The translations under genes and the position numbers were made by a program. Shown here one piece after another: positions 2,942-27,817 of a DNA stretch of 32,000 nt. This stretch comes from Haloferax volcanii DS2 (GTDB taxonomy: Archaea; Halobacteriota; Halobacteria; Halobacteriales; Haloferacaceae), in NCBI RefSeq assembly GCF_000025685.1, contig NC_013967.1, positions 1 to 32,000 of the forward strand. The letters run 5' to 3'. The notes beneath the pieces were generated by a model. That model was not told where the DNA came from. It was given only the letters and a program-made list of their open reading frames with translations, and made no database searches. How positions within the stretch are numbered: position 1 is the stretch's first letter; every line of letters starts with the position of its first letter.

Positions 2942-4543
2942 GTGCCACTGGAGACGCCGGCGCGCATCGTCCGGACGCTCGTCGGTCGCGGCTACAACGC
3001 CGAACGCGAGGCCGTGACCCTCATCGCCGGCTCCGACGACCCCGGCCGAACCCTCGCCCGCGTCGTCGAAGCCGCCCCGGACGACGCGCTTCGCATCACC
3101 GCCGACCACGTCCGCGAGGTGCTCGCGTCCGCCCCCGCCGCGGACCCGTCGGGAACCGAACCGACGCCCCCGGCCGCTGCGGACGCTGCGAACGCCGCGG
3201 ATGCCGACCCAGCCGCCTCCGCCGCATCAGACCCCTCCGTTTCCGCTGCAACATCGCACGACAACGCGGCCCACACCGACCAGTCTGCTCCAGCCGAAGC
3301 GCAGGGGACACCGGGCGGCCGGAACGTCGACCCGGCGCTTCGGTCCCTCGAAATCGCCAACGACATGACCGGCCAGTCGACGGGTACCGGCGAGTACGAC
3401 GACTTCGTGAAGGTGTTCCGCGACCGCTACGAGAAGCTCTCGAAACTGCTCCGCGGGCGCGTCAACCACCGCCCCGCGAAGGCCATCTCGAACATGTCCG
3501 GCGGCGAGGACGCCGAACTCATCGGCCTCGTCGACGACGTGCGCTCCACCAAGAGCGGCCACTGGATTATCGACCTTGAGGACACGACGGGGACGTTCCC
3601 CTGTCTCGTGATGAAGGACAAGGACATCGCGGGCTACGTCGACGAACTCCTCATGGACGAGTGCATCGCGGTGCAGGGGACGCTGTCGGGCGACGCGGGC
3701 ATCCTCTTCGTCGACTCGATGCACTTCCCCGACGTGCCGCGGAGCCACCGCTCCAACACCGCCGACAGGGACGTGCAGGCGGCGCTCATCTCCGACGTGC
3801 ACGTCGGCAGTCAGGAGTTCATGGCCGACGCGTGGAACCGCTTTGCCGACTGGCTCCACACCGAGGAGGCAGCGCGCATCGAGTACCTCCTCATCGCCGG
3901 CGACATGGTCGAAGGCGTCGGCGTCTACCCGAATCAGGACGAAGAACTCGACGTCATCGACATCTACGAGCAGTACGAGGCGTTCTCCGAGCACCTCAAA
4001 TCGGTGCCCGGCGACCTCGAAATCGTGATGATTCCGGGCAACCACGACGCGGTCCGACTCGCGGAGCCCCAACCCGGCTTCGACGACGAACTCCGCGACA
4101 TCATGTCGGCTCACGACGCCCGCATCACGAGCAATCCCTCGATGGTCACGCTCGAAGGCGTCAACGTCCTCATGTACCACGGTGTCTCGCTTGACGAGGT
4201 CATCGCCGAACTGCCGGCCGACAAGGCGAGCTACGACGAGCCGCACAAGGCGATGTACCAGCTTTTGAAAAAGCGTCACGTCGCGCCGCAGTTCGGGGGC
4301 CACACCCGCCTCGCGCCCGAGGAACTCGACTACCTCGTCATGGAGGACGTGCCCGACATCTTCCACACCGGCCACGTCCACAAGCTCGGTTGGGGCAAGT
4401 ACCACAACGTCCTCGCGGTCAACTCCGGCTGCTGGCAGGCCCAGACCGACTTCCAGAAATCGGTCAACATCGACCCCGACGCCGGCTACGCGCCCATCGT
4501 CGACCTCGACACGCTGAACATGACGGTCCGGAAGTTCTCCTGA
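2942..4543 (+). CDS. polD1: DNA polymerase D (Pol II) small subunit DP1, 3'-5' exonuclease
   Basis: Calcineurin-like phosphoesterase motifs SDVHVGS, GDMVEG, GNHD and GHVH in the C-terminal half. The N-terminal domain RIVRTLVGRGYN is followed by an Ala/Asp/Pro-rich linker. The track ORF starts at GTG 2924. I prefer GTG 2942 (MPLETPARIV) because the T-rich box sits about 26 nt upstream. The start remains uncertain. Confidence 0.9.
   Translation: MPLETPARIVRTLVGRGYNAEREAVTLIAGSDDPGRTLARVVEAAPDDALRITADHVREVLASAPAADPSGTEPTPPAAADAANAADADPAASAASDPSVSAATSHDNAAHTDQSAPAEAQGTPGGRNVDPALRSLEIANDMTGQSTGTGEYDDFVKVFRDRYEKLSKLLRGRVNHRPAKAISNMSGGEDAELIGLVDDVRSTKSGHWIIDLEDTTGTFPCLVMKDKDIAGYVDELLMDECIAVQGTLSGDAGILFVDSMHFPDVPRSHRSNTADRDVQAALISDVHVGSQEFMADAWNRFADWLHTEEAARIEYLLIAGDMVEGVGVYPNQDEELDVIDIYEQYEAFSEHLKSVPGDLEIVMIPGNHDAVRLAEPQPGFDDELRDIMSAHDARITSNPSMVTLEGVNVLMYHGVSLDEVIAELPADKASYDEPHKAMYQLLKKRHVAPQFGGHTRLAPEELDYLVMEDVPDIFHTGHVHKLGWGKYHNVLAVNSGCWQAQTDFQKSVNIDPDAGYAPIVDLDTLNMTVRKFS
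3231..3251 (-). repeat. ORB-like box inside the polD1 coding sequence
   Basis: The minus strand reads TTGCAGCGGAAACGGAGGGGT, 17/21 identical to the 15332-15312 copy. It lies in the low-complexity linker codons of polD1 (ASDPSVSAAT). Confidence 0.4.
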
Positions 4544-4655
4544 GGCGGCGACCGTTTCACTACTGACGACCGTTCGACTCAGCGACCGCTCTCCTACCAG
4601 TATGCTCCCTGATAGCACGCCGGATGTGCGGCGACCGAGACCATTCCACCGTCGC

Positions 4656-4662
4656 TTTTTAT
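4656..4662 (+). promoter_or_regulatory. TATA-like box for the OYE gene (leaderless geometry)
   Basis: TTTTTAT is centred about 27 nt upstream of ATG 4686. Confidence 0.45.
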
Positions 4663-4685
4663 CCGCGACGCCCACAGAATCGGTG

Positions 4686-5813
4686 ATGACCGACGACGCG
4701 CTGTTCGACGCGACGAGCCTGAACGACCTGTCGCTTTCCAACCGAGTCGGGCTGGCACCGATGACGCGCATCAGCGCCACCGACGAAGGACTGGCGACCA
4801 ACGAGATGGCCCACTACTACCGGAAGTTCGCCGACGGCGGCTTCGGCTTTCTCGTCACCGAGGGCGTCTACACGGACGACGCGTACAGTCAGGGATACCT
4901 GAACCAGCCGGGACTCGTCACCGACGACCACGTCGAGGCGTGGACGAACGTCACGGACGCCGTCCACGAGGTCGACACACCGATTTTCGCGCAGTTGATG
5001 CACGCCGGGGCGCAGTCGCAGGGCAACCCCCACCTCGACGGCGACCGGACGCTCGCGCCCTCCGCGGTCCAGCCCGACGGCCAGAAGGCCGAGGCCTACG
5101 GCGGCAGCGGCGAGTTCGCGGTCCCGAAGGCGGCCGACGAGACCGACCTCGAAACCGCCCGCGAGGGGTTCGTGCGGGCGGCGACGAACGCGGTCGAAGC
5201 CGGCTTCGACGGCGTGGAACTCCACGGCGCGAACGGCTACCTACTCAACGAGTTCCTCGCGGCGAACGCGAACCGACGCGACGACGAGTACGGCGGCGGT
5301 CCCGAGTCCCGCGTGAAATTCCCCGCCGAGGTGCTTTCGGCGGTCACCGACGCGGTTCCCGAGGAGTTCGTCGTCGGCATCCGCGTCTCGCAGGAGAAAG
5401 TGACCGACGGCGACTACGAGTGGCCCGAGGGCGAGGACGCGGCCGCGGTCTTCTTCGAGGAGCTGTCGGCGGCCGGAGCCGACTACGTCCACACGACCGA
5501 GACCGACGCGACGACTCCGACCTTCGGCGCGGACGGTCCGACACTCGCTGAGGCCGCCGCCGAGTACGTCACCGACGACACGGTCGTCATCGCCAACGGC
5601 GGGCTCGGGGACCCGGACGCGGCGCGGGCCGCCGTCGACGCCGGCGCGGACCTGTTCACGCTGGGCACGAGCGCGCTCGCCAACCCGGACTGGCCGGCGC
5701 GCGTGGCCGCCGGCGACGACCTCGACGCGTTCGACCCGGCGAAGTACCTCGCGCCGACCGCCGGGCTCTCGGACCACGAGGTCCCGTCCGAGCCGCCGCT
5801 CGCGGACGACTGA
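4686..5813 (+). CDS. NADH:flavin oxidoreductase, Old Yellow Enzyme family
   Basis: 375 aa from ATG 4686 (MTDDALFD...). OYE-type motifs LAPMTR, QLMHAG and GVELHGANGYLLNEFL. The 28 upstream codons of the track ORF are basic and contain the TATA box. Confidence 0.85.
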   Translation: MTDDALFDATSLNDLSLSNRVGLAPMTRISATDEGLATNEMAHYYRKFADGGFGFLVTEGVYTDDAYSQGYLNQPGLVTDDHVEAWTNVTDAVHEVDTPIFAQLMHAGAQSQGNPHLDGDRTLAPSAVQPDGQKAEAYGGSGEFAVPKAADETDLETAREGFVRAATNAVEAGFDGVELHGANGYLLNEFLAANANRRDDEYGGGPESRVKFPAEVLSAVTDAVPEEFVVGIRVSQEKVTDGDYEWPEGEDAAAVFFEELSAAGADYVHTTETDATTPTFGADGPTLAEAAAEYVTDDTVVIANGGLGDPDAARAAVDAGADLFTLGTSALANPDWPARVAAGDDLDAFDPAKYLAPTAGLSDHEVPSEPPLADD

Positions 5814-5857
5814 CGCGCGCTCGACGGCGGCTTCTCCGCCTGCGAACTACCCACCGA

Positions 5858-5878
5858 ACCCCTTCGCTTCCACTCGAA
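5858..5878 (-). repeat. ORB-like box in the OYE/ZIP convergent intergenic region
   Basis: The minus strand reads TTCGAGTGGAAGCGAAGGGGT, 17/21 identical to the 11780 copy. It lies 44 nt after the OYE stop and 57 nt after the ZIP stop. Confidence 0.5.
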
Positions 5879-5935
5879 CTCCCGTTTCACAGTTCCTCGA
5901 CGGTCGCCGTATTCGGACGCGCTAACTCGATTCGA

Positions 5936-6796
5936 CTACCCGAGCGTCACGTCGAGGTAGAGCATCACGACGACGCCGACCATCGTCCCGAACGTCGCCA
6001 CGCGCTCGTGGCCGTTCGAGTGCGTCTCGGGGACGATCTCGTCGGAGATGACGAACAGCATCGCGCCGGCGGCGAAGCCCATCGCGTAGGGAAGCAGCGC
6101 CGCGGCGTACTGGATGGCCCACGCGCCGAAGACGGCGAGCGGAATCTCCACGAGGCCGGCGCGGATACCCGCGAACGTCGCGTAGGTCGTGTTCCGAAGC
6201 CCGGCGTTGACGGCGGCGATGGAGACGGCCAGCCCCTCGGGGATGTTCTGGATGCCGATGGCGAGCATCAGCGGGACGGCGGTCCCGAGGTCGCCGGAGC
6301 CGAAACCGACCCCGACGGCGAGGCCCTCGGGCATGTTATGGATGGTGATGGCGACGATAAACAGGACGACAGAGGCCATCTTTTTGTCCGTCTCCGGGGC
6401 GTCCGCTCGGGTCTTGCCGGTCACGAGGATGTGGACGTGCGGAATCCACAGGTCGGCTTGGTCGAGGACGACGACGCCGATGACGAAGCCGACGAGGACG
6501 GGAATCGGACTCCCGCCCGCCGCCTCGATGCCGGGGAGGATGAGGCTCGTGAAACTCGCGGCGAGCATGACGCCGGCGGCGAAGCCGAGGAGCGTGTCGA
6601 GCGAGCGCTTCGAGGGGTCGCGCCAGACGAGAATGAGGAGCGCGCCGAGCATGTTCATCCCGGCGATGACGATGCCGCCGAGGAGGCCCTGCATCACCGG
6701 GTTCGAGCCGGCGAGCGAGACGAACAGCTCTTCGACCGCCGTCACGGCCGTCTCACTTCCGGCGGCCGTCTCTCGCGTCGTTCGGTCATGGACCAC
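5936..6796 (-). CDS. ZIP-family divalent metal (zinc) transporter, GufA/ZupT-like
   Basis: 286-aa polytopic membrane protein with the paired motifs HNMPEGLAVG and QNIPEGLAVS typical of ZIP transporters. GTG start at 6796. Confidence 0.8.
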   Translation of the reverse strand: MVHDRTTRETAAGSETAVTAVEELFVSLAGSNPVMQGLLGGIVIAGMNMLGALLILVWRDPSKRSLDTLLGFAAGVMLAASFTSLILPGIEAAGGSPIPVLVGFVIGVVVLDQADLWIPHVHILVTGKTRADAPETDKKMASVVLFIVAITIHNMPEGLAVGVGFGSGDLGTAVPLMLAIGIQNIPEGLAVSIAAVNAGLRNTTYATFAGIRAGLVEIPLAVFGAWAIQYAAALLPYAMGFAAGAMLFVISDEIVPETHSNGHERVATFGTMVGVVVMLYLDVTLG

Positions 6797-6853
6797 CTGA
6801 CGAGCGGGAGGTATGTATTCCCTCCGTCGGTTCTCGCCGGCCGCGAGGCTCGA

Positions 6854-7282
6854 CTATCCCGTCTCGTCGAGGACGTACCGAAGCGTCGGGGACCCTTCGA
6901 ACCGCGGGCCGTGGCCGACGCGGTCGAAGCCGACGTGCTCGACCGCCTCGCACAGCGGGGCCTCGGATTCGAGGACGAGCACCTCGACCGGCAGGTCTTC
7001 GGCGCTGGCGAAGCGCAGCGGCTCTTCGAGCAGTCGCCGCACCGCCGCCTCGGTGCCGCCGAGGCGGGTGACGTGGAGGACGCCGTCGCGGACGTCGAAG
7101 CCGACGAAGCCGAGCACCGGTTCGTCGTCGGCCGGCGCGTCGGCGTGGGGGTCCGAACTCGTCTCGGCGGTGGCGAGGCGGACCGTCCGGTCGCGTATCA
7201 GCCGACGCATCGCCCGTATCGGCGCGTCGGCGACGGCGGCGAGCGCCTCGGCGTCGGTGTCAACGGCGTCTCTGACATCCAT
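6854..7282 (-). CDS. Small acidic protein, GNAT acetyltransferase-like fold (tentative)
   Basis: 142 aa from ATG 7282 (MDVRDAVDTD...). The layout VLHVTRLGGTEAAVRRLLEE...VEVLVLESEAPLCEAVEHVGFDRVG resembles the GNAT acetyl-CoA-binding core but is degenerate. TTTAT (reverse complement of 7307-7311) lies 27 nt upstream of 7282. Confidence 0.5.
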   Translation of the reverse strand: MDVRDAVDTDAEALAAVADAPIRAMRRLIRDRTVRLATAETSSDPHADAPADDEPVLGFVGFDVRDGVLHVTRLGGTEAAVRRLLEEPLRFASAEDLPVEVLVLESEAPLCEAVEHVGFDRVGHGPRFEGSPTLRYVLDETG

Positions 7283-7304
7283 GCCCGAACGTTCCGCGGC
7301 TTCG

Positions 7305-7313
7305 GTGATAAAT
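7305..7313 (-). promoter_or_regulatory. TATA-like box for the 6854-7282 gene
   Basis: The minus strand reads GATTTATC, centred about 27 nt upstream of ATG 7282. This supports the trimmed start. Confidence 0.4.
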
Positions 7314-7469
7314 CTCCGCCCGCGAGGCGTCGGTACGGGCCGTCTCAGCGTCGGATTCGCGGGTGACGGCAACGGTTGAATCGGAGGACATAGTTATACG
7401 TCCCCCCGCGTTAGCCCCTCGCATGTTTACCAACGAAGCCCCGAAGCGACGCGACGCACCGGAGGAACG

Positions 7470-8648
7470 ATGCGCGTAGTCGCGAAGTTCGGCGGCACCT
7501 CGCTCGGTAGCGGCGACCGAATCAACCGCGCCGCCGACTCCATCGCCGCGGCCGTCGAACACGGCCACGAAATCGCCGTCGTCGCCTCCGCGATGGGCTC
7601 GACGACCGACGACCTCCTCGACGAAATCAAGTTCGAGGCCGACGACCGCGACCGCGCCGAAATCGTCTCGATGGGCGAGCGGACCAGCGTGCGCATGCTC
7701 AAGGCGGCGCTGGCCGCCCGCGGCGTCAACGCCCTGTTCGTCGAGCCCGGCACCGACGAGTGGCCGGTCATCACGAACGACCTCGGCGAGGTCGACGTCG
7801 AGGCGACCCGAGAGCGGGCCGCGAAGCTCGCCGCCGAACTCGACGGCGTCGTCCCGGTCATCACCGGCTTCCTCGCGCAGAACCACGACGGCGAAATCAC
7901 GACGCTCGGCCGCGGCGGCTCCGACACCTCCGCCGTGATGCTCGGCAACTACATGGACGCCGACGAGGTCGTCATCGTGACCGACGTGGAGGGCGTCATG
8001 ACCGGCGACCCGCGCGTGGTTGAAGGCGCGCGCAACGTCGGCCGCATCACCGTCGACGAGCTTCGGAACCTCTCGTTCCGCGGGGCCGAGGTCGTCGCGC
8101 CGTCGGCGCTGTCGTACAAGGACGCGGCGCTGGACGTTCGCGTCGTCCACTACCAGCACGGCGACCTGCTCACCGGCGGGACGCTCATCGAAGGCGAGTT
8201 CCACAACCTCATCGACATGCAGGAAGAGCCCCTCGCGTGTCTCACGGTGGCCGGGCGAGCGATTCGCAACCGACCGGGAATCCTCGCGGACCTCTCGGCA
8301 GCCCTCCGAGAAGAGGACATCAACGTCGACTCGGTCGCCTCCGGGATGGACTCTATCACGTTCTACGTCCTCGAAGACGACTCCGACCGGGCCGAGGCCG
8401 TCCTCCACGACCGCGTCGTCGCCGACGACGCGCTGTCGTCGGTCACCGTCGAAGACGACATCGCCGTCGTCCGCGTCACCGGCGGCGAACTCCCGAACCG
8501 CCCCGGCGTCATCCTCGACATCGTCGAGCCGCTGTCCGAGGCCGGCATCAACATCCACGACGCCATCACCTCCGCGACCTCCGTCGCCATCTTCGTGGCG
8601 TGGGACGACCGCGAGGAGACGCTCGGCATCATCCAAGACGAGTTCTGA
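7470..8648 (+). CDS. lysC: Aspartate kinase (amino-acid kinase domain plus two ACT domains)
   Basis: 392 aa. KFGGTS N-terminal signature, TLGRGGSD motif and two ACT-like repeats in the C-terminal third. GGAGG lies 5 nt before the ATG (Shine-Dalgarno-like). Confidence 0.9.
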   Translation: MRVVAKFGGTSLGSGDRINRAADSIAAAVEHGHEIAVVASAMGSTTDDLLDEIKFEADDRDRAEIVSMGERTSVRMLKAALAARGVNALFVEPGTDEWPVITNDLGEVDVEATRERAAKLAAELDGVVPVITGFLAQNHDGEITTLGRGGSDTSAVMLGNYMDADEVVIVTDVEGVMTGDPRVVEGARNVGRITVDELRNLSFRGAEVVAPSALSYKDAALDVRVVHYQHGDLLTGGTLIEGEFHNLIDMQEEPLACLTVAGRAIRNRPGILADLSAALREEDINVDSVASGMDSITFYVLEDDSDRAEAVLHDRVVADDALSSVTVEDDIAVVRVTGGELPNRPGVILDIVEPLSEAGINIHDAITSATSVAIFVAWDDREETLGIIQDEF

Positions 8649-8872
8649 GCCGGTTCTCGTCGCGCTCTCGAAGCTGTTTCTCGCGCGCTCGCGTCCTCGA
8701 AAGTGACATCGCTCGACCGGTGGTCGTCGGCGGTCGCTGAAGTCGGCTCGTGGCGAGAACGGAACAGCCGGCGACACCGATGCACACACCAGTCCACGAG
8801 CGCCGAAAACCGGGCGTAGCCCCTCGATTTTCCGCCTGCCGATTACTTCACATTCGCGGACCTATTGCGGGC
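8649..8872 (+). promoter_or_regulatory. tnaA upstream regulatory region
   Basis: 224-nt non-coding gap upstream of tryptophanase. The short direct repeat CGATT(N12)CGATT at 8825-8846 lies just upstream of the start. In H. volcanii the tnaA promoter is known to be tryptophan-inducible. Confidence 0.4.
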
Positions 8873-10219: not shown

Positions 10220-10247
10220 TGGCTTCAGGACGGCCACTCGCGTTCCC

Positions 10248-10907: not shown

Positions 10908-10955
10908 GGCTCGGTGTACGGTGTCGCGGGTGAAAAATCTCGGGCCGCGGCGGCG

Positions 10956-11528: not shown

Positions 11529-11626
11529 ACACGACAGTGGATAGAATAGGGGGAAATAGTTGGCGGTTTATGCACGTCCGTCCGTCACCGTGCGACGAAA
11601 TCCCACGGCGGAATCGACACGCAACG

Positions 11627-11636
11627 TTTACAAATA
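11627..11636 (+). promoter_or_regulatory. TATA box of tRNA-Gln
   Basis: TTTACAAATA is centred about 30 nt upstream of tRNA position 1 (11661). Confidence 0.5.
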
Positions 11637-11660
11637 CCCGCGAAGTACGAACTGATGCGA

Positions 11661-11733
11661 AGTCCCATGGGGTAGTGGCCAATCCTGTTGCCTTCTGGGG
11701 GCAACGACCCAGGTTCGAATCCTGGTGGGACTA
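11661..11733 (+). tRNA. tRNA-Gln: tRNA-Gln (anticodon CUG)
   Basis: Manual cloverleaf. Acceptor AGTCCCA/TGGGACT (7 bp), D stem GGGT/ATCC, anticodon stem TTGCC/GGCAA with loop TTCTGGG (U33, CTG, G37), T stem CCAGG/CCTGG with loop TTCGAAT, discriminator A. CCA is not encoded and there is no intron. Confidence 0.93.
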
Positions 11734-11779
11734 TTTCTCCGATTCTCACGCGCTTCGAGGCTACGCTGTCCCCCCTGAT

Positions 11780-11800
11780 CTCCAGTTGAAACGAAGGGGT
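11780..11800 (+). repeat. ORB-like box downstream of tRNA-Gln
   Basis: CTCCAGTTGAAACGAAGGGGT is 18/21 identical to the orc1-promoter copy and 19/21 identical to the 15332-15312 copy. Confidence 0.55.
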
Positions 11801-11837
11801 GGGATTCGAAAACCCAAGGGGTTTGTTTCGAGTGGAG
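11780..11837. repeat. 58-nt imperfect inverted repeat / hairpin
   Basis: Arms CTCCAGTTGAAAC (11780-11792) and GTTTCGAGTGGAG (11825-11837) give 11 Watson-Crick pairs, 1 G:U and 1 mismatch. An inner GGG(9 nt)CCC mini-stem lies at 11801-11815. Confidence 0.6.
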
Positions 11838-11896
11838 TTCTTGAGTACGGATTCGCGGGACCACCGGATACGGCCGATACGGGCCGCGAAAACCGC

Positions 11897-12391
11897 TTAG
11901 CGGTCGACCGCGAGGAGCGCCACTCGCTCTCTGACCAGCGCGGGGAGGTCGCCGTCGACGACGTGCAACTCCGTCTCGCCCACGTCGAACACGTCGCGGA
12001 CGAGGCTCTCGTCGTAATCACCGAGGGTCTCTGCGGGTTCGAAGTCGAGGCGGTCGAACAGCGCGGCCTCGGCGGCGGCCTCGTCGCCGCCGTCGACGAG
12101 AACCACGACGGGGAGCGTCCCTTCCGAGACGCCGATTTCGAACGCGCGGTTAATCTGCCGGCGGCCGCTGGCGTAGAGGAGGATTTCGACGGCGCGGTCG
12201 CGGGCGATTTCGTTGCCGCGGGCGATGGCCCTGTCGGCGAGCTCGACCGCTCGTTCGAGGTGCTCGCGGTCCACGACGTACCGGGCGTCGAACGCCTGCA
12301 CCGTCGCGCCCGTCTCGTCGGCCACGTCGCCGACGGCCGCGATGAACGAATCGAGGTCCGAGACGGTCGCCTCGGCTTCGAGGAGCCTCAT
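11897..12391 (-). CDS. cgi121: KEOPS complex subunit Cgi121
   Basis: 164 aa. [20 protein letters not shown] matches the conserved Cgi121 motif (compare EILVRASGQRQIHEAIKIIG in the methanogen protein as I recall it). Its start overlaps the hel308 stop (ATGA). Confidence 0.75.
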
Positions 12392-14871
12392 TCGAAATCA
12401 CCCAGACTGGCCTGCTGGTCGGCGCGCTCTTTGGCCGTCTCGAAGCCGGCGTCGTCGGGGACGGCGTCGTCCGGCGCGTCGTCTTCGTCCACCGCGTCCA
12501 TCGACGGGTCCTTTCTCCCCGCGGCTTCGAGGATGTTCTCCGCGGTCTTCCTGCGACCCCGGAGGGCGGCGAGGACGCGCGGTTTGTCGGCCTCGCGGAG
12601 GTCGGCCCGAGTTTCGACGCCGGCCTCGAACAGCCGGCGGGCGCGCTTTCGGCCGACGCCGCGGACGCCGGCGAGGTCGAGCAGTTCCTCGCGGACGCCG
12701 TACTCGACGCGCTTTTTCGCCTCGCGGACCGCGTACACCGAATCGAGGTCGAGTTCGGTGGCGAGTCGCTCGGCCGCGCCGAGGAGCCACTCGGAGGTCT
12801 CGACTTTCCCGCGGATGTCGCCGGGGCCGACCCCGTAGCGCTCGGTGATGCGGTCTTCGTCCACCTCGCCGACCCAGTCTTCGAGGAGTTTCGCGGTCTT
12901 CAGCGCCGACAGCCAGTCTTCGAACGCCACGTCCTCGTACTCCGAGGGAACGCGCCCGAGGAACTCCGGTTCGCGCTCGTAGCACAGTTCCGTGTAGGTC
13001 TCGCGGTCGCCGGACTTCAGGTAGAGCTGATACATATCGGGCGTCCGGCAGACGAGGTGATAGAGACCGAGCGGCGTCGGATACGTCCGGTCCGTCTCGA
13101 CCCCGTCGGCGTCGTCGCTGTCGCCGTCGCCGTTCGCCCCCACCCCGTCTTCGCCGCCTCCACCGTCGCCGTCGTCAGCGACCATCTCGCTTGCCCGCTG
13201 GAAGCCGCCGGATTCGTCGGATTCGCTTCGGTCTCGCGTCGGCTTCTCGGGCGTCTCGCCCGCGAGCGCCCGGAGCTTCTCGGTCCGGTGGTCCGCGGCC
13301 CATTCGAGGCCGTCGATGATTTCGGCGGCGCTCATCGGGTCGAGGTAGAGCCGCGAGACGGTGTGGCCGACGGGCGTCGCCTGTATGGTCTCTCCTTCGA
13401 ACTCGACGAACCCGTTTACTTCGAGGTAGTCGAGCACGCGGTCCGTCACCTGTCCGAGTCGCTCGGGGTCGTCGGTCTGGGTCGCATACAGTGTCTGGTC
13501 TAAGAATTCGAGCAGTCCCTCACGGGTGTGGGCGAAGCCGGAGGCGACCGTGGCGAGCAGGTGCGTCCGCAGGGCCGGCTCGGCCGCGAGCTTCGACCGC
13601 ACGTCCTCGGCGTCGGCCCAGATGTACCGCTCGAACAGTTCGTCGCGGGCGTCCGCGTCCTTCGCCAACAGCACCGCCTCGCCGTAGGGGTCGAGGCCGG
13701 GGCGGCCGGCCCGACCCATCATCTGGTGGACTTCGAGCACGTCCAGCGGTTTCATGCCGCCGTAGTCGCCGTCGTAGCGTTGCCAGTCGCGGACGACGAC
13801 GCGGCGGCTCGGGGTGTTGACGCCGGCGGCGAGCGTCGGCGTCGCGCAGATGCATTTGATGAGTCTGTCGCGGAAGGCGTCTTCCACGAGCGTTCGGTGT
13901 TCCGCGGCGAGTCCCGCGTGGTGGAACGCCGCGCCTTTGGCGACCGCGTTGGCGAGGTCGTCGGAGGTCTCGGTGTCGGACACGTCGCGTATCTCGGCGG
14001 CGAGCTCCGCGAGGTCGCTCCGCTCGTCGCCGGTGACGTACCGCTCCGTCACGTCGGCCATGCGGCGGGCCGCGGACTCCGCGTTGCGCCGCGAGTTCAC
14101 GAAGACGAGCGAGGAGCCTTGGTCGCCCTCGCCGTCGCCCTCCAGCGCGTCGGCGACGAGCGCGGGCGTCTGTCGTTCCCCGCGGCCGACCGGCACCTCG
14201 CGTTGGCTCCCGTCGGCGAAGGAGACGGCGTTGCCGTAGTGGACGCCCATCTTGAGGTCGATGGGTCGCCAGTCGGACTTGACGAGCTCCGCGTCGAGCC
14301 AGTCGGAGACGACGCCCGCGTTGCCGACGGTCGCCGAGAGTGCGACGACTTGCAGGTTCGTGTTGAGTCGGCGGAGCTTCGCCAGCGTGACCTCCAGCGT
14401 CGGCCCGCGGTGGCGGTCGTCGACGAGGTGGACCTCGTCGGCGACGACGCAGGTGAGTTGGTCCATCCACGCCGCGTTGTTCCGGACGAGCGAGTCGACC
14501 TTCTCGCTCGTGGCGACGATGATGTCGCGCGAGGAGAGCCACTCGCCGTCGGACTCGTAGTTGCCGGTCGAGACGCCCACGTCGATGCCGTACTCCTCCC
14601 AGCGCTCGAACTCGGCTTTCTTCTCGGAGGCGAGCGCCCGGAGCGGGACGATGTACAGCGCCTTCCCGCCGCGCGCGACGCTCGACAGCATCGCCAGTTC
14701 GGCGATGAGCGTCTTTCCGCTCGCCGTCGGGACGGCGGCCACGAGGCTCTCGCCGTCCGTCAGGCCGGCCTCGACGGCCTCGGCCTGCGGCGGGTACAGC
14801 TCCTCGATACCCTCGTCGCGGAGGGCCTCGGGAATCCCCGTCGGCAGGCCCGTCAGGTCCGCAGTTCGCAT
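12388..14871 (-). CDS. hel308: Hel308 (Ski2-like superfamily 2 DNA helicase)
   Basis: 827 aa. Walker [14 protein letters not shown] box VVADEVHLV, motif [13 protein letters not shown] and a C-terminal HhH-like region. Contains an acidic Gly/Asp-rich insertion encoded at about 13081-13262. Confidence 0.93.
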
Positions 14872-15311: not shown

Positions 15312-15332
15312 ACCCCTCCGTTTCGACTGGAG
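15312..15332 (-). repeat. ORB-like box downstream of the ferredoxin gene
   Basis: The minus strand reads CTCCAGTCGAAACGGAGGGGT, 19/21 identical to the 11780 copy. It lies 86 nt after the ferredoxin stop and 55 nt before the micro-ORF ATG. Confidence 0.55.
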
Positions 15333-15387
15333 ATTCGACCGACGATAGAGTGTAACAGTTAAGCGGCGGGCCCCTAATCGTGCCACT

Positions 15388-18295: not shown

Positions 18296-18322
18296 GACGG
18301 CGGAAAAACCGACCGTCTCGAC

Positions 18323-19408
18323 CTATTCGACGACGTGAGCCGACGCCGGAGCGAATCCGACTTCCAGCGTCGCCCCGACCTCGAACCCCGCGTCCGACTG
18401 TTCGCCGCCGTCTTCGACCGCCACGACGAGTTCCGTTCCGCCCCAGTCGAGTCTGACCCGCGTCGTCGCCCCCTGAAACTCGGTGTCGACGACGGTCCCC
18501 CGAATTTTGTTCGTCCCCGCGCCGGCCCGGAGTTGTTCGGGGCGGACGCAGAAGGTGAGTTCGTCGCCGGCTCCCGCTCTCGACCCCGCCTCCCCGAGCA
18601 CCCGCGGCCCCTCGGCCAGCGTGAACACCGCGTCGCCGACGCCGACGCGAATCCCCCCCGTTTCCGGTCGAGACTCGACGACCCCGTCGAGGACGTTGTT
18701 CTCGCCGAGGAACTCCGCGACGAATCGCGTCCGCGGGCGGTGGTAGAGGTCGCGGGGGTCGCCGACCTGCTCGACGCGGCCGCCGTTGAGGACGGCCACC
18801 CGGTCCGAGACCGCCAGCGCCTCCGACTGGTCGTGGGTGACGTAGACGGTCGTCACGCCGAGGTCCGACTGGATGCGCTTTACCTGCCGGCGGAGTCGGT
18901 CCCTGAGTCGGGCGTCCAGCGCCGACATCGGCTCGTCGAGGAGCAGCAGGTCCGGGCCGGGCGCGAGAGCGCGGGCGAGCGCGACGCGCTGTTGTTGGCC
19001 GCCAGATAGCGAGTCGGGGTCGCGGTCTTCGAACCCCGCGAGGTCGACGAGGTCAAGCAGTTCCGCGACGCGGTCGTCGCGGGAGCCGCCGCCCGGCGGG
19101 TCGGTAAAGCGGAGGCCGTAGGCGACGTTCTCGCCGACGCTGAGGTGCGGGAACAGCGCGTAGTTCTGGAACACGACGCCGACGCCCCGCGACTCGGGCG
19201 CGACGCCGACCATCGACTCGCCGTCGAAGCGGACGGTCCCCTCGGTCGGGGACTCGAAGCCGGCGATACAGCGGAGCGTGGTCGTCTTCCCGCAGCCGGA
19301 GGGGCCGACGAGCGTGAAGAACTCGCCGTCGTCGACCGACAGCGAGACGGAATCGAGCGCCGTCGCCGACCCGTAGCGTTTGGACACCGCGTCGAGTTCG
19401 AGTCTCAC
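18323..19408 (-). CDS. ABC importer ATP-binding protein (thiamine / Fe(III) / polyamine-type)
   Basis: 361 aa. Walker A GPSGCGKTT, signature LSGGQQQRVALARAL, Walker B LLLLDEP, H-loop, and a C-terminal TOBE-like domain. GTG start at 19408 with GGAGG 8 nt upstream. Confidence 0.9.
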   Translation of the reverse strand: MRLELDAVSKRYGSATALDSVSLSVDDGEFFTLVGPSGCGKTTTLRCIAGFESPTEGTVRFDGESMVGVAPESRGVGVVFQNYALFPHLSVGENVAYGLRFTDPPGGGSRDDRVAELLDLVDLAGFEDRDPDSLSGGQQQRVALARALAPGPDLLLLDEPMSALDARLRDRLRRQVKRIQSDLGVTTVYVTHDQSEALAVSDRVAVLNGGRVEQVGDPRDLYHRPRTRFVAEFLGENNVLDGVVESRPETGGIRVGVGDAVFTLAEGPRVLGEAGSRAGAGDELTFCVRPEQLRAGAGTNKIRGTVVDTEFQGATTRVRLDWGGTELVVAVEDGGEQSDAGFEVGATLEVGFAPASAHVVE

Positions 19409-19511
19409 GGGTTCGCCTCCGAAGTCACGTGCTCCCCTCGCCGGCGGACGGGCATAATTCTCACTTCCCGCGGTTCGTCTCCGTCTTGTTCTCCGGGCTC
19501 CCTCATCTCCC

Positions 19512-21233: not shown

Positions 21234-21242
21234 CGGCTCACC

Positions 21243-22379: not shown

Positions 22380-22509
22380 TACTCGGTTGTTGTACTCTGT
22401 GGTACTTAACGGGCGTGATGTTCGCGGGGCCGGGTAAACGGCCGAATCAGTCGGTTTCGAGGGTTGTCACGGGAGAACGGCTTTACCGTCAGCGAGAGTA
22501 TCACGGGCG

Positions 22510-23400
22510 ATGACTGCTTCTCGCCCGTACGTCCTCGGCGGCGTGTTCGCCCTCTTTGCGCTCCTCGCGGCGGTCCTGCTCGTAGACGTGCTGGCGACGG
22601 TGTTTTTCGCCATCACCGTCGCCTACCTGCTCGTCCCGCTCAGGCGACGCCTCGAAGCGTGCGGGGCCTCCCGGTGGGTCGCCAGCCTCGCCGCCACCGT
22701 CGTCGCGGCGGTCGGCGTCGGCGTCGTGCTCGCGCCGCTCGTCGTCATCCTCTTTCTCCGCCTGAGTGACATCCTCGAACTCGCGGCGCTCCTCCCCGAC
22801 GTGGTGACTATCGAGTTCCTCGGGATGGTCGAGACGGTGACGCTGGACGACGTGGTCGCGGTCGGTCTCGGTCTGCTCCGGTCGGTCGGCCGCACCGCCG
22901 CCACCGCCGCGCCCGTGGTCCTCATCAAACTCACGCTGTTCGGCTTCCTCGTGTTCGCGCTGCTCCTCAGCGGCGACGCGGTCGGGCGGACGCTCCCCGC
23001 GCTGGTCCCGGCCGACTACCGGGGCGCGGCGACGGCGCTCAACGAGCGGGCTCGCGAGACGCTGTTCGCTATCTACGTCTTGCAGGCGGCGACCGCCGTC
23101 GGCACGTTCGCCATCGGCCTCGTCGTCTTCTGGGCGCTCGGCTACGACTACGTCGTCACGCTCGCGACAGTCGCGGCCGTTCTCCAGTTCATCCCCATCG
23201 TCGGCCCGAGCGTCCTGCTCGCGGCGATGGCCGCCTACCACGCCGCCGTCGGCGACGTCGTCGCCGCCGCGCTCGTCGTCGCGCTCCTCGCGGAGTCGGT
23301 CGACCTGCTCGGCGCGGAGTTACGCGTCGACGACGTGGGTGGTGACGGCGACGAGCGCGACGAGTCCGCGGACGACTCGGTCGACCCGAGTCAGCCGTAA
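22510..23400 (+). CDS. AI-2E (PerM/UPF0118) family transporter-like membrane protein
   Basis: 296 aa, polytopic, with LQFIPIVGPSVLL, the FIPxxGP motif typical of the family. It is shorter than usual after that motif and ends in an acidic tail. Confidence 0.6.
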   Translation: MTASRPYVLGGVFALFALLAAVLLVDVLATVFFAITVAYLLVPLRRRLEACGASRWVASLAATVVAAVGVGVVLAPLVVILFLRLSDILELAALLPDVVTIEFLGMVETVTLDDVVAVGLGLLRSVGRTAATAAPVVLIKLTLFGFLVFALLLSGDAVGRTLPALVPADYRGAATALNERARETLFAIYVLQAATAVGTFAIGLVVFWALGYDYVVTLATVAAVLQFIPIVGPSVLLAAMAAYHAAVGDVVAAALVVALLAESVDLLGAELRVDDVGGDGDERDESADDSVDPSQP

Positions 23401-23409
23401 CCTCGCTCG

Positions 23410-24186
23410 TCAGCCCTCGACGACCGCGCCGTCGCGCTCCTCCCACTCGGTGAGGCTGCCCTCGTAGAACGCCACGTCGTCGTAGCCGAGGTGAGAGAGC
23501 ACGACGTAGGTGTGGCTGATGCGCCGGGCGGTGTTGCAGTAGAGGACGACCCGCCGGTCCGGGGTGACGCCCACGGCGTCCAGAATCGCGTCGAGTTCGT
23601 CCCGCGGTTTCAGCCCGCGCGTCTCGTCGTCGACGAGTTCGCGCCAGTCGAGGTTGACCGCGCCGGGGAGGTGCCCCTCGTCATACTCCGCGGGGTCGCG
23701 GGTGTCCACGATGACGGTCTCGGGGTCGTCGAGCGCGGCCTCGACGGCCTCGAAATCCACGAGCGGCGTCTCGGCCGGCTCGGTTATCTCGTAGACCGTT
23801 CCCGCGACCTCGCTCGCCTCGGTCGTCGTCTCGCGCTCGCGGTTCCACGCGCTGAAGTCGCCGTCGAGGAGGTGGAGCCTGTCGGGGTCGTGGCCGTAGA
23901 GGAGCGCGGTCACGAGAAAGCGCGCGGCGAAGACGCCGTGGGTGTCGTCGTAGGCGACCACGTCGTCGTCGGCCGCGACGCCCGCGCCCGACAGGAGGTC
24001 GGTCCACGCGTCGCGGCCGGGAAGCATCCCCACGTCGCCGTCGGCGCTTCGGAACTCGTCGAAGGGTATCGACACCGCGCCGGGGAGGTGTCCGATGCCG
24101 TCGAACTCCCAGCCGTCGCGCACGTCCACCACGCGCACGTCGTCGAGTCGGTCCGCGAGCCACGTCGGAGAGACCACGTCTACCAT
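23410..24186 (-). CDS. Tandem-rhodanese sulfurtransferase
   Basis: 258 aa from ATG 24186 (MVDVVSPTWLADRL...). Two rhodanese domains with the active-site loop YCNTARRIS in the second. The 53 upstream codons of the track ORF are basic and not gene-like. Confidence 0.85.
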   Translation of the reverse strand: MVDVVSPTWLADRLDDVRVVDVRDGWEFDGIGHLPGAVSIPFDEFRSADGDVGMLPGRDAWTDLLSGAGVAADDDVVAYDDTHGVFAARFLVTALLYGHDPDRLHLLDGDFSAWNRERETTTEASEVAGTVYEITEPAETPLVDFEAVEAALDDPETVIVDTRDPAEYDEGHLPGAVNLDWRELVDDETRGLKPRDELDAILDAVGVTPDRRVVLYCNTARRISHTYVVLSHLGYDDVAFYEGSLTEWEERDGAVVEG

Positions 24187-24437
24187 GCCCCCACGTTTCC
24201 GGGCCGCGGATTTAGGTCCGCCCCTCCTCGCACCCCTCGCCCCATGTCCGGGGTAGCGGATGTTGTTGCTGGTTCCGTTGGATACCGGACTGAAACCCAC
24301 CGAGACGGCCGTTCTCTGAATCCCTTTCGTCGTCTCTCGGGGCATACTCAGGCTAATATTGCCGCATCACCCGAGGTCAGGCCGTACATGCCGTCGCTGT
24401 GAGAGTTATGGGCCTTCCTGTTGTACGGTGAAACGCG

Positions 24438-25298
24438 ATGTCAAACTCCGATTACGCGAAGGACGTACTCGTCTCTGCGGACTGGGTGGAGAGCCACCTC
24501 GACGAGTTCCAGAGCGACGACCCGGCGTACCGACTCGTCGAAGTGGACGTGGACACCGAGGCGTACGACGAGAGTCACGCCCCCGGTGCCATCGGGTTCA
24601 ACTGGGAGTCCCAGCTGCAGGACCAGACGACCCGTGACGTGCTGACCAAGGAGGACTTCGAGGACCTCCTCGGCTCCCACGGCATCTCCGAGGACTCTAC
24701 GGTCGTCCTCTACGGCGACAACTCCAACTGGTTCGCCGCCTACACCTATTGGCAGTTCAAGTACTACGGCCACGAGAACGTTCACCTGATGAACGGCGGC
24801 CGCGACTACTGGGTCGACAACGACTATCCGACGACCGACGAAATCCCGTCCTTCCCGGAGCAAGACTACAGCGCCAAGGGTCCCTTCGAGGACATCCGCG
24901 CGTACCGCGACGACGTCGAGAAGGCGGTCGACAAGGGTCTTCCCCTCGTCGACGTTCGCTCGCCCGAAGAGTTCTCCGGCGAGATTCTCGCGCCCCCGGG
25001 ACTGCAGGAGACCGCCCAGCGCGGCGGCCACATCCCCGGCGCGAGCAACATCTCGTGGGCCGCGACCGTCAACGACGACGGCACCTTCAAGTCTGCCGAC
25101 GAACTCCGCGACCTCTACGCGGACCAGGGCATCGAAGGCGACGAGTCCACCATCGCCTACTGCCGCATCGGCGAGCGCTCGTCCATCGCGTGGTTCGCCC
25201 TTCACGAACTCCTCGGCTACGAGAACGTCACCAACTACGACGGCTCGTGGACGGAGTGGGGCAACCTCGTCGGCGCGCCCGTCGAGAAGGGTAACTGA
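24438..25298 (+). CDS. Thiosulfate / 3-mercaptopyruvate sulfurtransferase (tandem rhodanese)
   Basis: 286 aa. Two rhodanese domains with the active-site loop YCRIGERSS in the C-terminal domain. Confidence 0.9.
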   Translation: MSNSDYAKDVLVSADWVESHLDEFQSDDPAYRLVEVDVDTEAYDESHAPGAIGFNWESQLQDQTTRDVLTKEDFEDLLGSHGISEDSTVVLYGDNSNWFAAYTYWQFKYYGHENVHLMNGGRDYWVDNDYPTTDEIPSFPEQDYSAKGPFEDIRAYRDDVEKAVDKGLPLVDVRSPEEFSGEILAPPGLQETAQRGGHIPGASNISWAATVNDDGTFKSADELRDLYADQGIEGDESTIAYCRIGERSSIAWFALHELLGYENVTNYDGSWTEWGNLVGAPVEKGN

Positions 25299-25341
25299 GC
25301 CGCCTCGGCCTCAGTTCGTTTCGATACCGACCGACCGGTTC

Positions 25342-25346
25342 TTTTT
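25342..25346 (+). terminator. Oligo-T tract downstream of the rhodanese gene
   Basis: TTTTT lies 44 nt after the stop at 25298 and is preceded by the GC hairpin GCCG(CCT)CGGC. Archaeal termination commonly uses T-runs. Confidence 0.35.
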
Positions 25347-25351
25347 GGGGT

Positions 25352-26794
25352 TCACATCGGCAGGACGCTGATGCCGACGGCGACGAGTACGCCCGCGCCG
25401 AGAAGCACCATCACGCAGTAGCCCATGATGTCGCGGACCGACAGGCCGCTGATGGAGAGCAGCGGGATGGCCCAGAAGGGCTGAATCATGTTGGTCCACG
25501 CGTCGCCCCACGAGGCGGCGACGGCGACCCGCGGGATGGACTCGCCGGACGCCTTCGCGGCCGTGACGAGCGTCTCGCCGATGACGGCCCACTCGCCCCC
25601 GCCGGAGGGGACGAAGAAGTTCACGAGGCCGGCGGTGAAGAAGGCAAAGGCCGGGAGCGTCCCGTCGGGCGCGACGGCGACCATGCCCTGTGCGATTTGC
25701 GTGGCGAGGCTGACGGAGCCCTCCGGCGCGTAGGCCATGATGCCCATGATGCCCGCGTAGAAGGGGAACTGGAGGATGATTCCCCAGACGTTCTCGACGG
25801 CCTCGACGACGGCCTCGATGTACGCCTTGGGCGTCCCGTGGAACAGCACGCCGAGAAAGAGGAAACCGAAGTTGACGATGTTCAGGTTGAGATTGTTCCA
25901 CGGCATCGTCCCGTTCTGGACGCCCTCCCAGAAGTACAGGGCGACCGCGAGCAGGCCGACGACGCCGATTGCCACGCCGATGCCGAGCGAGTGCTCGATG
26001 CGCGTCGCGAGCGAGGCGTCGTCGGGGACGGCCGTGGAGGCCCACCCGCCGGTCGCCTGCTCGCCGCCGTCGGTCGCCGTCTCGAACGCCGCGGGGTCGA
26101 TGGGCGTCTTCTTCGCGTCGTCGGTCGGGTACATGAGCGCGAACAGCGCCGGCAGGAAGAGGAAGCCGACCGCGACGACCAACACGAGGTTGGCGACCGT
26201 GAAGATGGTCCCGCCGGTGCCGAACGTCGTGTCGAGGATGCCCGCCTCGATGAGGAAGTTCCCCTCGGTGTTCAACAGGAGCGGAATCGACCCCGCGAGA
26301 CCGCCGTGCCAGACGACGAACCCGGAGTACGCCCCGGCGACGACGATGGGGAAGTCGATGCCGCGCATCTCGGTCGCTATCTTCCGGGCGAACAGCGCCC
26401 CGACGACGAGGCCGAGGCCCCAGTGGACGAACGACGCCCCGGCGGCGACGACCGGAACCATCGCGGCCGCGCCCCGTTCGGTGTTCGGGACGCCCGCAAG
26501 TCGTGTCAAGAGCCAGTCCACGGGCTTCGTCTGCGCGAGCGCGTAGCCCGTCATCAGGATGAGCGTCATCTGCATCCCGAACGAAAGCAGGTTCCAGAAG
26601 CCCCCGTACCAGCCGTCGAGAAGCAGGTTTCCGGCGTGCCCCACCATGCCGACCCCCTCGGCCGGCGCGACCGACACCAGCGCCAGCACGAACGCCACTC
26701 CGGTCAGGATGATGGCGAACAGGAACGCGTCGGGGAGGTACTGTTCGACCAGTTTCGAACTGCGCTCCGCCGCCTGCCTGATAGCGTTTGTCAT
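25352..26794 (-). CDS. Short-chain fatty acid transporter, AtoE family
   Basis: 480 aa from ATG 26794 (MTNAIRQAAERSSKLVEQYLPDAFLFAIILT...). The N-terminal ..LPD..hFA.hLT pattern and about 12 TM segments match AtoE as I recall it. The track start at 26821 is a TTG inside the AT-rich promoter. Confidence 0.7.
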   Translation of the reverse strand: MTNAIRQAAERSSKLVEQYLPDAFLFAIILTGVAFVLALVSVAPAEGVGMVGHAGNLLLDGWYGGFWNLLSFGMQMTLILMTGYALAQTKPVDWLLTRLAGVPNTERGAAAMVPVVAAGASFVHWGLGLVVGALFARKIATEMRGIDFPIVVAGAYSGFVVWHGGLAGSIPLLLNTEGNFLIEAGILDTTFGTGGTIFTVANLVLVVAVGFLFLPALFALMYPTDDAKKTPIDPAAFETATDGGEQATGGWASTAVPDDASLATRIEHSLGIGVAIGVVGLLAVALYFWEGVQNGTMPWNNLNLNIVNFGFLFLGVLFHGTPKAYIEAVVEAVENVWGIILQFPFYAGIMGIMAYAPEGSVSLATQIAQGMVAVAPDGTLPAFAFFTAGLVNFFVPSGGGEWAVIGETLVTAAKASGESIPRVAVAASWGDAWTNMIQPFWAIPLLSISGLSVRDIMGYCVMVLLGAGVLVAVGISVLPM

Positions 26795-26807
26795 AGCTCG
26801 GATAACC

Positions 26808-26841
26808 TCATGATAATACAATATATAATGTTTAATATTCC
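26808..26841. promoter_or_regulatory. AT-rich island in the divergent promoter region
   Basis: TCATGATAATACAATATATAATGTTTAATATTCC is by far the most AT-rich stretch I saw in the window. It lies 14-47 nt upstream of the AtoE-like start. Confidence 0.5.
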
Positions 26842-26973
26842 TGCTAGTTCGATTCGGTAGAATGTCACGAACCGGCCGACACGCCGGTCGTCGTCTGGGG
26901 TCGGGTCGTCACAGACCCGCGCCGGACTCGCCGCCGCCGATGGGTACAAACCCGAGACGGACATACGGGGCGT

Positions 26974-27573
26974 ATGTCCGAACTCCTCGACACCCTCCGC
27001 GACGACCACGAGACGCCGCTTTCCCGACTCGGCTCCTCGAAGGCGCTGTACGCCGTCACCGGCGGCGAGATGGACGGCGACGCGGTCCGCGCCGCGGCCG
27101 CCGCCGAGGCCGCGGCCGCCGCCGACCTGTTCGACTGGTGGGCAGACGACGAACCGAACGACGAGGCCGCCGCGCTGTTTTCGGACCTCGCCGACACCGC
27201 CCGGGAGCACGCCGAAACCGTCGGCGCGGAGTCCGACGGCTCGAAGCCGAACGTCTACGACGTGCTCGCCGAGTTCGAGACGACCGACGGCCGCCTCGGC
27301 GGCGCGCTCGCCCGCGCGCTCGTGTCGCTGAAGACCGTCGAGCAGATGGTCGGCTTCTTCGTCGGCGACGCGGACCCGATGGCCGCCAACGACTTCCGCA
27401 CGCTCAAATCCGATCTCAACGACCAACTCGACACGCTCGAAGCCGCCGTCTCCGACCTCGTCGACGACGACGCAGTCGCCCGCGAGGCCGCCGACGCGGT
27501 GGTCGAAGCCGCCTACGACGAGTACGTCGAGACGCTGGAAGGCATGGGCGTCAAGCCGAAGAACGTCTGCTAA
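26974..27573 (+). CDS. Acidic hypothetical protein
   Basis: 199 aa with high GC3. Predicted helical and Ala/Asp/Glu-rich. I recognise no motif. Confidence 0.75.
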   Translation: MSELLDTLRDDHETPLSRLGSSKALYAVTGGEMDGDAVRAAAAAEAAAAADLFDWWADDEPNDEAAALFSDLADTAREHAETVGAESDGSKPNVYDVLAEFETTDGRLGGALARALVSLKTVEQMVGFFVGDADPMAANDFRTLKSDLNDQLDTLEAAVSDLVDDDAVAREAADAVVEAAYDEYVETLEGMGVKPKNVC

Positions 27574-27579
27574 GCCCCC

Positions 27580-27612
27580 TTTTCACTCACAGAGGGTCGC
27601 CGTTGGCGACCC
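27580..27612 (+). terminator. T-run plus perfect GC hairpin downstream of the 26974-27573 gene
   Basis: TTTT at 27580-27583 is followed by GGGTCGCC(GTT)GGCGACCC at 27594-27612 (8-bp stem, 3-nt loop), starting 7 nt after the stop. Confidence 0.4.
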
Positions 27613-27796
27613 ACCCGGAGTAAACCGTCTCCGTGAACGGTAGCGGAACGACGGCTCGTGAGACGCAGCGCGCCTCACGGTGGGGAAAACAGCCGCGAGA
27701 CTCGACTTCGGCCTGGCTCGCTGTGCGTTATGCTCGGAACTTGTATCTTCGTTCGCCCAGTGCTGACAGCACCGACGCGCGGCGTATGTGAGTGAG

Positions 27797-27817
27797 TTCC
27801 AGTAGAAACGAGGGGGT
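27797..27817 (+). repeat. ORB-like box
   Basis: TTCCAGTAGAAACGAGGGGGT is 18/21 identical to the 11780 copy. It lies 14 nt beyond the stop of the minus-strand gene 27832-28101. Confidence 0.55.

Follow-up and report, generated by a model that had tools for sequence, protein, structure and literature searches.

Why should copies of a replication origin's recognition sequence lie in gene gaps, and even inside a gene, as far as 28 kb from the origin itself? The question is raised by the first 32,000 nucleotides of the main chromosome of Haloferax volcanii DS2 (hereafter the window, meaning the whole stretch of DNA analysed), which begin with the origin oriC1 and the initiator gene orc1. The original prediction, made from the letters of this DNA, had listed six 21-mers resembling the archaeal origin recognition box (ORB), one beside orc1 and five dispersed, and offered three readings: Orc1 sites outside the origin, terminator or 3′-untranslated region (3′ UTR) elements, and promoters of antisense RNAs. 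We consider it probable that the dispersed 21-mers are genuine ORBs, most likely auxiliary docking sites for Orc1 that would buffer the initiator near oriC1 and tune its firing. Window coordinates are those of the main chromosome, the window being the chromosome start, since the published table of transcription start sites (TSSs) matches both the sequence upstream of 278 and the gene coordinates from HVO_0001 on.

Origin-type boxes beyond the origin

All six copies are present at the coordinates and on the strands predicted (table 1), and the consensus yTCCAGTnGAAACGrAGGGGT, with at most three mismatches, finds exactly these six, where 100 dinucleotide-preserving shuffles of the window predict 0.01 matches, so that, as had been claimed, they are not attributable to chance. 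The positions described as invariant (T2, A5, G9-A10-A11, C13 and the terminal GGGGT) all hold; the pairwise identities, put at 16–19 of 21, do reach 19, but descend to 15 in one pair. A position weight matrix (PWM) built from the six copies and scanned over the window, as the prediction had proposed, adds three weaker copies at a threshold that yields 0.6 matches per window on a first-order Markov background, and the 13-nt core by itself matches 11 times where 2.7 would be expected. A repeat finder run on the window returned GC-rich coding noise only. The placing of the dispersed copies in intergenic DNA at gene 3′ ends broadly holds, except that the copy at 3231–3251 sits inside polD1 and that the 15312 box is also upstream of HVO_0016.

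The likeness to ORBs was borne out by published sequences and by origins themselves. The boxes match the euryarchaeal ORB consensus GTTCCAGTGGAAAC-AAA----GGGGG quoted by Norais et al., as well as the Sulfolobus islandicus ORB TTTCCAGTGGAAATAAAGGGGT published for work on MCM recruitment, and at three loci of our collection (L070, L073 and L110) the 21-mers around the AT-rich unwinding element adjacent to orc1 are letter-for-letter those of the dispersed boxes. In two of these (L070 and L110) the origin boxes point their TTCCAG ends inward across spacers of 218–270 bp that include 40-nt windows at 25–30% GC, and two further loci (L069 and L103) have a box comparable to the orc1-proximal copy of H. 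volcanii, 112–119 nt from orc1. Inverted pairs among the dispersed boxes keep the polarity of origin ORBs, with TTCCAG ends facing each other, over a spacer that is short and GC-rich (36 bp at 67% GC in polD1). No unwinding element is flanked by the dispersed boxes, and only the copy at 230–250 adjoins orc1. The extended G-string of halophiles, GGGGTGGGGG, is found on boxes far upstream of orc1 and is missing from both the dispersed and the orc1-proximal boxes. When the flanks of the boxes were compared, no similarity was found past the 21-mer and no features of miniature inverted-repeat transposable elements or of other dispersed repeats appeared; since similarity stops there, the boxes are not a mobile repeat. 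A pair of opposite polarity, G-strings inward, was seen at one locus of the collection (L067, 6868(+)/6986(−)); its spacer is 97 bp long at 41% GC, the 8-kb block contains no homologue of orc1, and the pair may represent a different origin type.

Conserved positions around oriC1

The two polD1 boxes, at 3231 and 3288, lie in a low-complexity linker of the PolD small subunit, at about residues 100–130. In some 20 genera a (−) box is followed by a (+) box on the sense strand of polD1, G-strings outward and in a constant codon frame, with a start-to-start spacing that is usually 57 bp, as it is in H. volcanii. An unbiased set of metagenomic loci was fetched with peptides of the catalytic domain (AGDMVEGV and [ML]IPGNHDA; 80 loci, 76 usable) and scored for boxes of at least 15 bits within 450 nt upstream of the conserved C-terminal region. 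At least one box occurs in 72 of the 76, a (+) box in 69 and an inverted pair in 49, with the spacing exactly 57 bp in 45 of those 49; together these loci span 548 kb and contain 182 strong boxes, of which 103 are in polD1, 55 upstream of orc1 and few elsewhere. In the protein alignment the linker is hypervariable in length and sequence save for two islands, (D/N/H)PSVSTG and xPVET(K/E)GS, which are the two boxes. Rare codons are nearly fixed there: GTT in 23/25 (background 0.06), ACT in 20/25 (0.06), GGA in 21/25 (0.09) and CCA in 27/28 (0.09), along with GAA in 28/28 (0.26) and GGG in 28/28 (0.22). The remainder of the gene has a GC content at third codon positions (GC3) of 0.86, and an A/T-ending codon is preferred in just 7 of 268 conserved amino-acid columns, two of these seven being in the box. 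Given such near-fixation of rare A/T-ending codons, selection at the polD1 boxes acts, to judge from codon usage, on the sequence of the DNA, of which the peptide islands are a by-product. At several loci of Halorubrum and relatives (L049, L055, L075 and L009) polD1 has lost the (−) arm and keeps the (+) arm only. In a small sample of non-halophilic archaea whose polD1 adjoins orc1 (Bathyarchaeia and others) no intragenic boxes were found, and within that sample the pair appears specific to haloarchaea.

Selection on such a pair might conceivably concern an RNA hairpin, whether in the mRNA of polD1 or in the trailer of tRNA-Gln, or else a cruciform in the DNA, given that the arms are near reverse complements at a fixed spacing and that at position 8 they agree more often than expected (0.67 against 0.48). 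We find this very improbable. Agreement between the arms was counted in 60 distinct pairs, and at all other variable positions (1, 6, 7, 14, 15, 16 and 21) it is what independent arms would give; roughly half of the pairs would have a C-A mismatch at position 15, and the concordance at position 8 can, we infer, result from GC3 drift common to two synonymous sites. Moreover, folds of three 3′ UTRs and of the tRNA-Gln trailer are no better than those of shuffled sequences (z −0.84 to +0.9), an Rfam search of the window returned tRNA only, and several Halorubrum loci manage with a single arm. With no covariation between them, each arm behaves as an independent half-site.

How far this pattern extends was addressed with a collection-wide scan, which used a stricter pattern that omits two of the six window copies and is thus a sample, not a census. 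It lists at least 120 loci: 85 are haloarchaeal, other archaea account for 27, and the 8 bacterial ones are presumably matches by chance. The haloarchaeal loci were sorted by gene context through a tblastn search of the window proteins against the 120 listed loci, and among these matches 74 of the 85 (87%) adjoin homologues of genes in the 32-kb window: the box is inside polD1 in 33, near tRNA-Gln or cgi121 in 19, upstream of orc1 in 14 and beside the DUF7089 gene in 5; 3 correspond to Haloferax-specific sites, 2 lie downstream of a methyltransferase gene or inside the HVO_0020 homologue, and 11 could not be placed by gene context. Such a share in window synteny argues strongly, on the sequences sampled, against a uniform genome-wide background, and several sites are kept across genera, which answers the check for position conservation in related genomes that the prediction had proposed. 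Some unplaced matches are at repair genes: one inside a Hef-type gene in Natrinema zhouii (L006, 6703), one 29 nt from the 5′ end of an open reading frame for an XPD/Rad3-like helicase in Salinigranum (L014, 6792), and one about 20 nt past uvrB in Salinarchaeum (L043, 1716). Strong ORB-like boxes about 4 kb apart were also seen in Asgard-related metagenome-assembled genomes (MAGs) of Thorarchaeota (L011 at 2140 and 6209; L090 at 1509, 5595 and 5733), a hint that dispersed ORBs near origins possibly occur beyond haloarchaea.

The tRNA-Gln site, too, is shared between genera. A full box is found 45–55 nt past the 3′ end of tRNA-Gln(CTG) in Natrinema, Natronococcus, Natronorubrum, Natrialba, Halorubrum and Haloferax, and in all six genera its G-rich strand is the tRNA sense strand. 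At three loci (L002, L017 and L094) an inverted mini-ORB without G-string (e.g. GTTTCGACTCGAG) directly follows the tRNA, and its start is 46 bp from that of the full box; in H. volcanii the corresponding upstream half has decayed (CGCTTCGAGGCTA, within 11734–11779), and another weak partner lies downstream at 11817–11837. The published Term-seq table implies an annotated small transcript, HVO_0011s, that ends at 11770, 10 nt before the 11780 box.

Conservation of the remaining sites is at the level of the genus. Conservation of the 5858 box was seen only in Haloferax chudinovii (L101), and the 27797 box is kept in Haloferax sp. Q22 and H. larsenii (L045 and L083). The 15312 box recurs at −168 in Haloferax sp. 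YSSS75 (L029), a recurrence independent of locus selection, since this form of the box fails the scan pattern. Boxes beside the DUF7089 gene, upstream or downstream, occur in Haladaptatus, Halosimplex, Halomarina and a MAG; here tandem direct pairs 48–49 nt apart are found (L027 at about 2280/2329; L046, L092 and L081), which precede the gene in Haladaptatus and follow it in Halosimplex and a MAG, unlike the inverted pairs elsewhere. The weak 18652 box, 329 nt from the 3′ end of HVO_0020, has stronger counterparts in homologues of that gene from Halobacterium (L008, 1918–1938, 32.9 bits) and Halobaculum (L104, about 7392, 23.8 bits), at 263 and 257 nt from the 3′ end. Translated, the boxes of H. 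volcanii and Halobaculum give RPETGG and PVEAGG, which align with each other; an ORB read in this frame specifies P-V-E-T-(K/E/G)-G, just as in polD1.

Table 1. ORB-like boxes and relevant genes of the H. volcanii DS2 window, in chromosomal order
Feature	Coordinates	Strand	Context and remarks
Weak mini-ORB core CTCGTGTTGAAAC	41..53	+	oriC1 intergenic region
ORB directly upstream of orc1	230..250	+	Origin-proximal copy; without extended G-string
orc1, HVO_0001	258-1952		Orc1/Cdc6 initiator
polD1, HVO_0003	2942-4540		PolD small subunit
polD1 pair, arm 1	3231..3251	−	Inside polD1 linker; encodes DPSVSAAT
polD1 pair, arm 2	3288..3308	+	Found by PWM; degenerate, 17.1 bits; encodes APAEAQGT
HVO_0004 (OYE) / HVO_0005 (ZIP)			Convergent pair
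Single box	5858..5878	−	Convergent gap HVO_0004/HVO_0005
tRNA-Gln(CTG)	11661-11733
tRNA-Gln box	11780..11800	+	47 nt past tRNA-Gln(CTG); G-rich strand is the tRNA sense strand
Inverted mini-ORB partner of 11780 box	11817..11837	−	Found by PWM; without G-string; present in L029 too
cgi121	11897-12391	−
hel308	12388-14871	−
HVO_0015			4Fe-4S ferredoxin
Single box	15312..15332	−	87 nt past ferredoxin HVO_0015 stop; 147 nt upstream of HVO_0016
HVO_0016			DUF7089
Degenerate box	18652..18672	−	Found by PWM, 16.7 bits; inside HVO_0020
HVO_0020			ABC ATPase
Single box	27797..27817	+	14 nt past HVO_0028 stop; convergent gap with HVO_0027
HVO_0028			DUF7553; convergent gap with HVO_0027
HVO_0029			UvrB

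Transcripts at the boxes

Do the boxes act on transcripts instead? The second reading of the original prediction, a terminator or 3′-UTR element, fared partly: three mRNA 3′ ends do lie at box edges, but neither RNA structure, nor covariation, nor a consistent orientation accompanies them. According to the published table of RNA 3′ ends, HVO_0004 ends at 5887(+), 9 nt past the far edge of the 5858 box, HVO_0015 at 15335(+), 3 nt past that of the 15312 box, and HVO_0028 at 27798(−), 1 nt inside that of the 27797 box; all three transcripts read the C-rich strand of their box. By our own arithmetic, the chance of three such ends is about 2e-4 if ends are uniform in those gaps, for a distance window chosen post hoc. 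The association is real, and it is explained by no model considered here. That the boxes end transcripts, through their sequence (CGTTTC, with AGATC or AGATT downstream) or through a bound protein, is nevertheless rather improbable. Only 5887 follows TTT-C, 15335 falls within GAGATT/C and 27798 has no T run; the box holds just three T's, 7–21 nt upstream of the 3′ ends, so that an oligo-T terminator does not fit, and a protein roadblock does not fit either, since it would halt polymerase ahead of the box, whereas at these ends polymerase is already past the site. No 3′ end is listed inside polD1 in the same table, the tRNA-Gln box is read on its G-rich strand by transcripts that continue past it to 11923 and 12138, the orientation of boxes relative to neighbouring genes differs between genera, and the identical 21-mer serves as an ORB at origins. 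A structured RNA element is not supported as a candidate class, there being no fold that beats shuffles, no covariation and no Rfam match.

The third reading, promoters of antisense RNAs, is not supported by the TSS map, which shows no box-driven start. In the table from differential RNA sequencing (Babski et al. Table S2) no TSS lies near any box except 27771(+), assigned to the novel transcript 0027n2. This start does give an RNA that runs through the 27797 box and is antisense to the 3′ end of HVO_0028; yet it lies 26 nt upstream of the box and has its own TATA at −27. With no mapped TSS about 25–30 nt downstream of a box, this class likewise lacks support. Functionless relics of mobile elements or of origin duplication fare no better, as the boxes share no flanks and neutral relics are ruled out by position conservation across families together with the fixation of rare codons. 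Antisense promoters and relics, taken together, are already largely refuted, and we regard them as the least probable of all the explanations weighed.

A regulatory role of another kind is somewhat less remote, although we still hold it unlikely: the boxes could be operators of an Orc-family regulator, be it the initiator or a non-initiator paralogue, of replication and repair genes, by analogy with the control of the DNA-damage response by Orc1-2 in Sulfolobus. It is true that polD1, hel308/cgi121 and uvrB have boxes within or next to them, that other genera have boxes inside hef, beside an XPD-like helicase gene and shortly after uvrB, and that transcriptional roles for Orc1 proteins have been proposed (Samson et al.). 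Against this, the H. volcanii boxes occupy 3′ gaps or coding sequence, not promoters, and no TSS is associated with them. Repair genes, furthermore, cluster around oriC1 regardless, so that adjacency to them is inseparable from adjacency to the origin.

Probable Orc1 docking sites outside the origin

Of the readings first offered, Orc1 sites outside the origin thus give the best fit, judging by the origin-ORB sequence of the boxes, their clustering at oriC1, the conservation of their positions across genera and the selection on DNA within a coding region. Each ORB is known to bind one Orc1 monomer with defined polarity, inverted ORBs around an unwinding element direct MCM hexamers into the DNA between them, and Sulfolobus Cdc6-1 binds ORBs across species. 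The binding protein would most likely be Orc1 (HVO_0001), and titration or local organisation its most likely role. Orc1 would dock at single boxes or inverted pairs outside the unwinding region of oriC1, and the docked protein, held or buffered near the origin, could tune oriC1 firing as a titrating sink, a reservoir or a local organiser; it may influence transcription nearby as well, such as that of polD1 and its neighbours. The dispersed pairs are unlikely to be initiation sites themselves, since their spacers are short and GC-rich and offer no AT-rich element to melt. Nor are the dispersed boxes needed for autonomous replication, given that the 1.1-kb intergenic region upstream of orc1 alone has autonomously replicating sequence (ARS) activity.

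It is instructive to set the boxes against known systems. They share with the ORBs and mini-ORBs of oriC1, which are bound by Orc1/Cdc6, the 21-bp sequence (core TCCAGTnGAAAC plus GGGG), the orc1 neighbourhood and, in the pairs, the inverted arrangement with TTCCAG ends inward. Unlike those ORBs, they flank no AT-rich unwinding element, carry neither the extended G-string nor the inner G-rich repeat, occur as far as 28 kb from orc1 in 3′ gaps and within coding sequences, and are dispensable for ARS activity. In Haloarcula hispanica, oriC2D, an array of 11 ORBs in 722 bp downstream of cdc6E, represses oriC2, probably by titrating Cdc6E, and ORBs were noted downstream of other ori-cdc6 regions too (Wu et al. 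2014). Like the ORBs of oriC2D, the boxes described here stand apart from the origin proper, on the downstream side of the cognate orc gene, and the buffering of initiator that we propose would follow the same logic. Yet oriC2D packs its ORBs into one dense intergenic cluster and belongs to an origin acquired recently, whereas here single or paired boxes are scattered along 28 kb near the ancestral oriC1; some of them sit within genes, and some are conserved in position across families. No dense cluster of the oriC2D or datA type was found: five strong and three weak boxes are distributed over 3.2–27.8 kb, and the dispersed box nearest orc1 belongs to a two-box pair 1.3 kb past that gene. Bacterial DnaA-box loci outside oriC (datA, DARS, gene bodies and promoters) are similarly dispersed near-origin initiator sites with regulatory roles, and the comparison is one of analogy only, initiator and motif being unrelated to the archaeal ones. 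In S. islandicus, chromatin immunoprecipitation sequencing of Orc1/Cdc6 shows non-origin sites in vivo (Samson et al. 2013), so that there, too, archaeal initiators sit off origins, as may be the case here; that paper describes neither the sites nor their motifs and reports no connection with conserved positions or coding sequences, and the lineage is another one. The statement in the original prediction that no such boxes had been described was therefore too strong, in view of oriC2D and the ORBs downstream of ori-cdc6 regions (2014) and the Sulfolobus sites (2013): extra-origin initiator sites are already a known kind of element. For the polD1 pair and the tRNA-Gln box no description was found in a literature search that was thin on subscription journals, and the accessible literature likewise yielded none for single or paired boxes dispersed over about 28 kb around the ancestral oriC1, or for conservation of box positions across haloarchaeal families. 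Earlier surveys covered only intergenic regions flanking orc genes and so could not have seen an intragenic pair.

Several observations weigh against Orc1 docking. The dispersed boxes are without the extended G-string and inner G-rich repeat of origin ORBs, which may alter or lower affinity, and at one or two boxes per site they come nowhere near the 11 boxes clustered in oriC2D. With 16 Orc paralogues in H. volcanii, Orc1 is not singled out as the protein that would bind. Few polD1 pairs are as decayed as that of H. volcanii (28.8 and 17.1 bits), and strains of H. volcanii that lack origins are viable; any role is, on both counts, not essential in this species. The tRNA-Gln site is missing in Halorussus, Haloplanus and a MAG, two unbiased tRNA-Gln loci have the box in neither, and Halobacterium, without this site, has a box near cgi121 instead; across the loci compared, the tRNA-Gln site is conserved at the family level and not universal. 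Finally, the 3′ ends at box edges are not predicted by a model of Orc1 docking. These points notwithstanding, docking by Orc1 still seems to us the probable function of the boxes. Going further, one may tentatively suppose, though we rate it as doubtful, that the landing sites around oriC1, including the polD1 pair, form a conserved set that is a regulatory or architectural system of the origin region. Such a set could be a reservoir or sink of initiator, make PolD expression depend on initiator occupancy, or serve as an anchor for the origin domain, in a role comparable to that of bacterial datA/DARS or parS arrays.

To our knowledge, the regulation of archaeal origins beyond the core of two ORBs and the unwinding element between them is largely unknown. 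The boxes provide a defined, testable set of candidate initiator sites outside an origin. Among them the polD1 pair, near-universal in Halobacteria and placed in a hypervariable linker, is an unusually clean genetic handle, since synonymous recoding can destroy it without a change in the protein. Origin-prediction pipelines restricted to intergenic DNA would miss it. Overall, polD1 would be a protein-coding gene that carries a second, DNA-level code, most likely written for the replication initiator.

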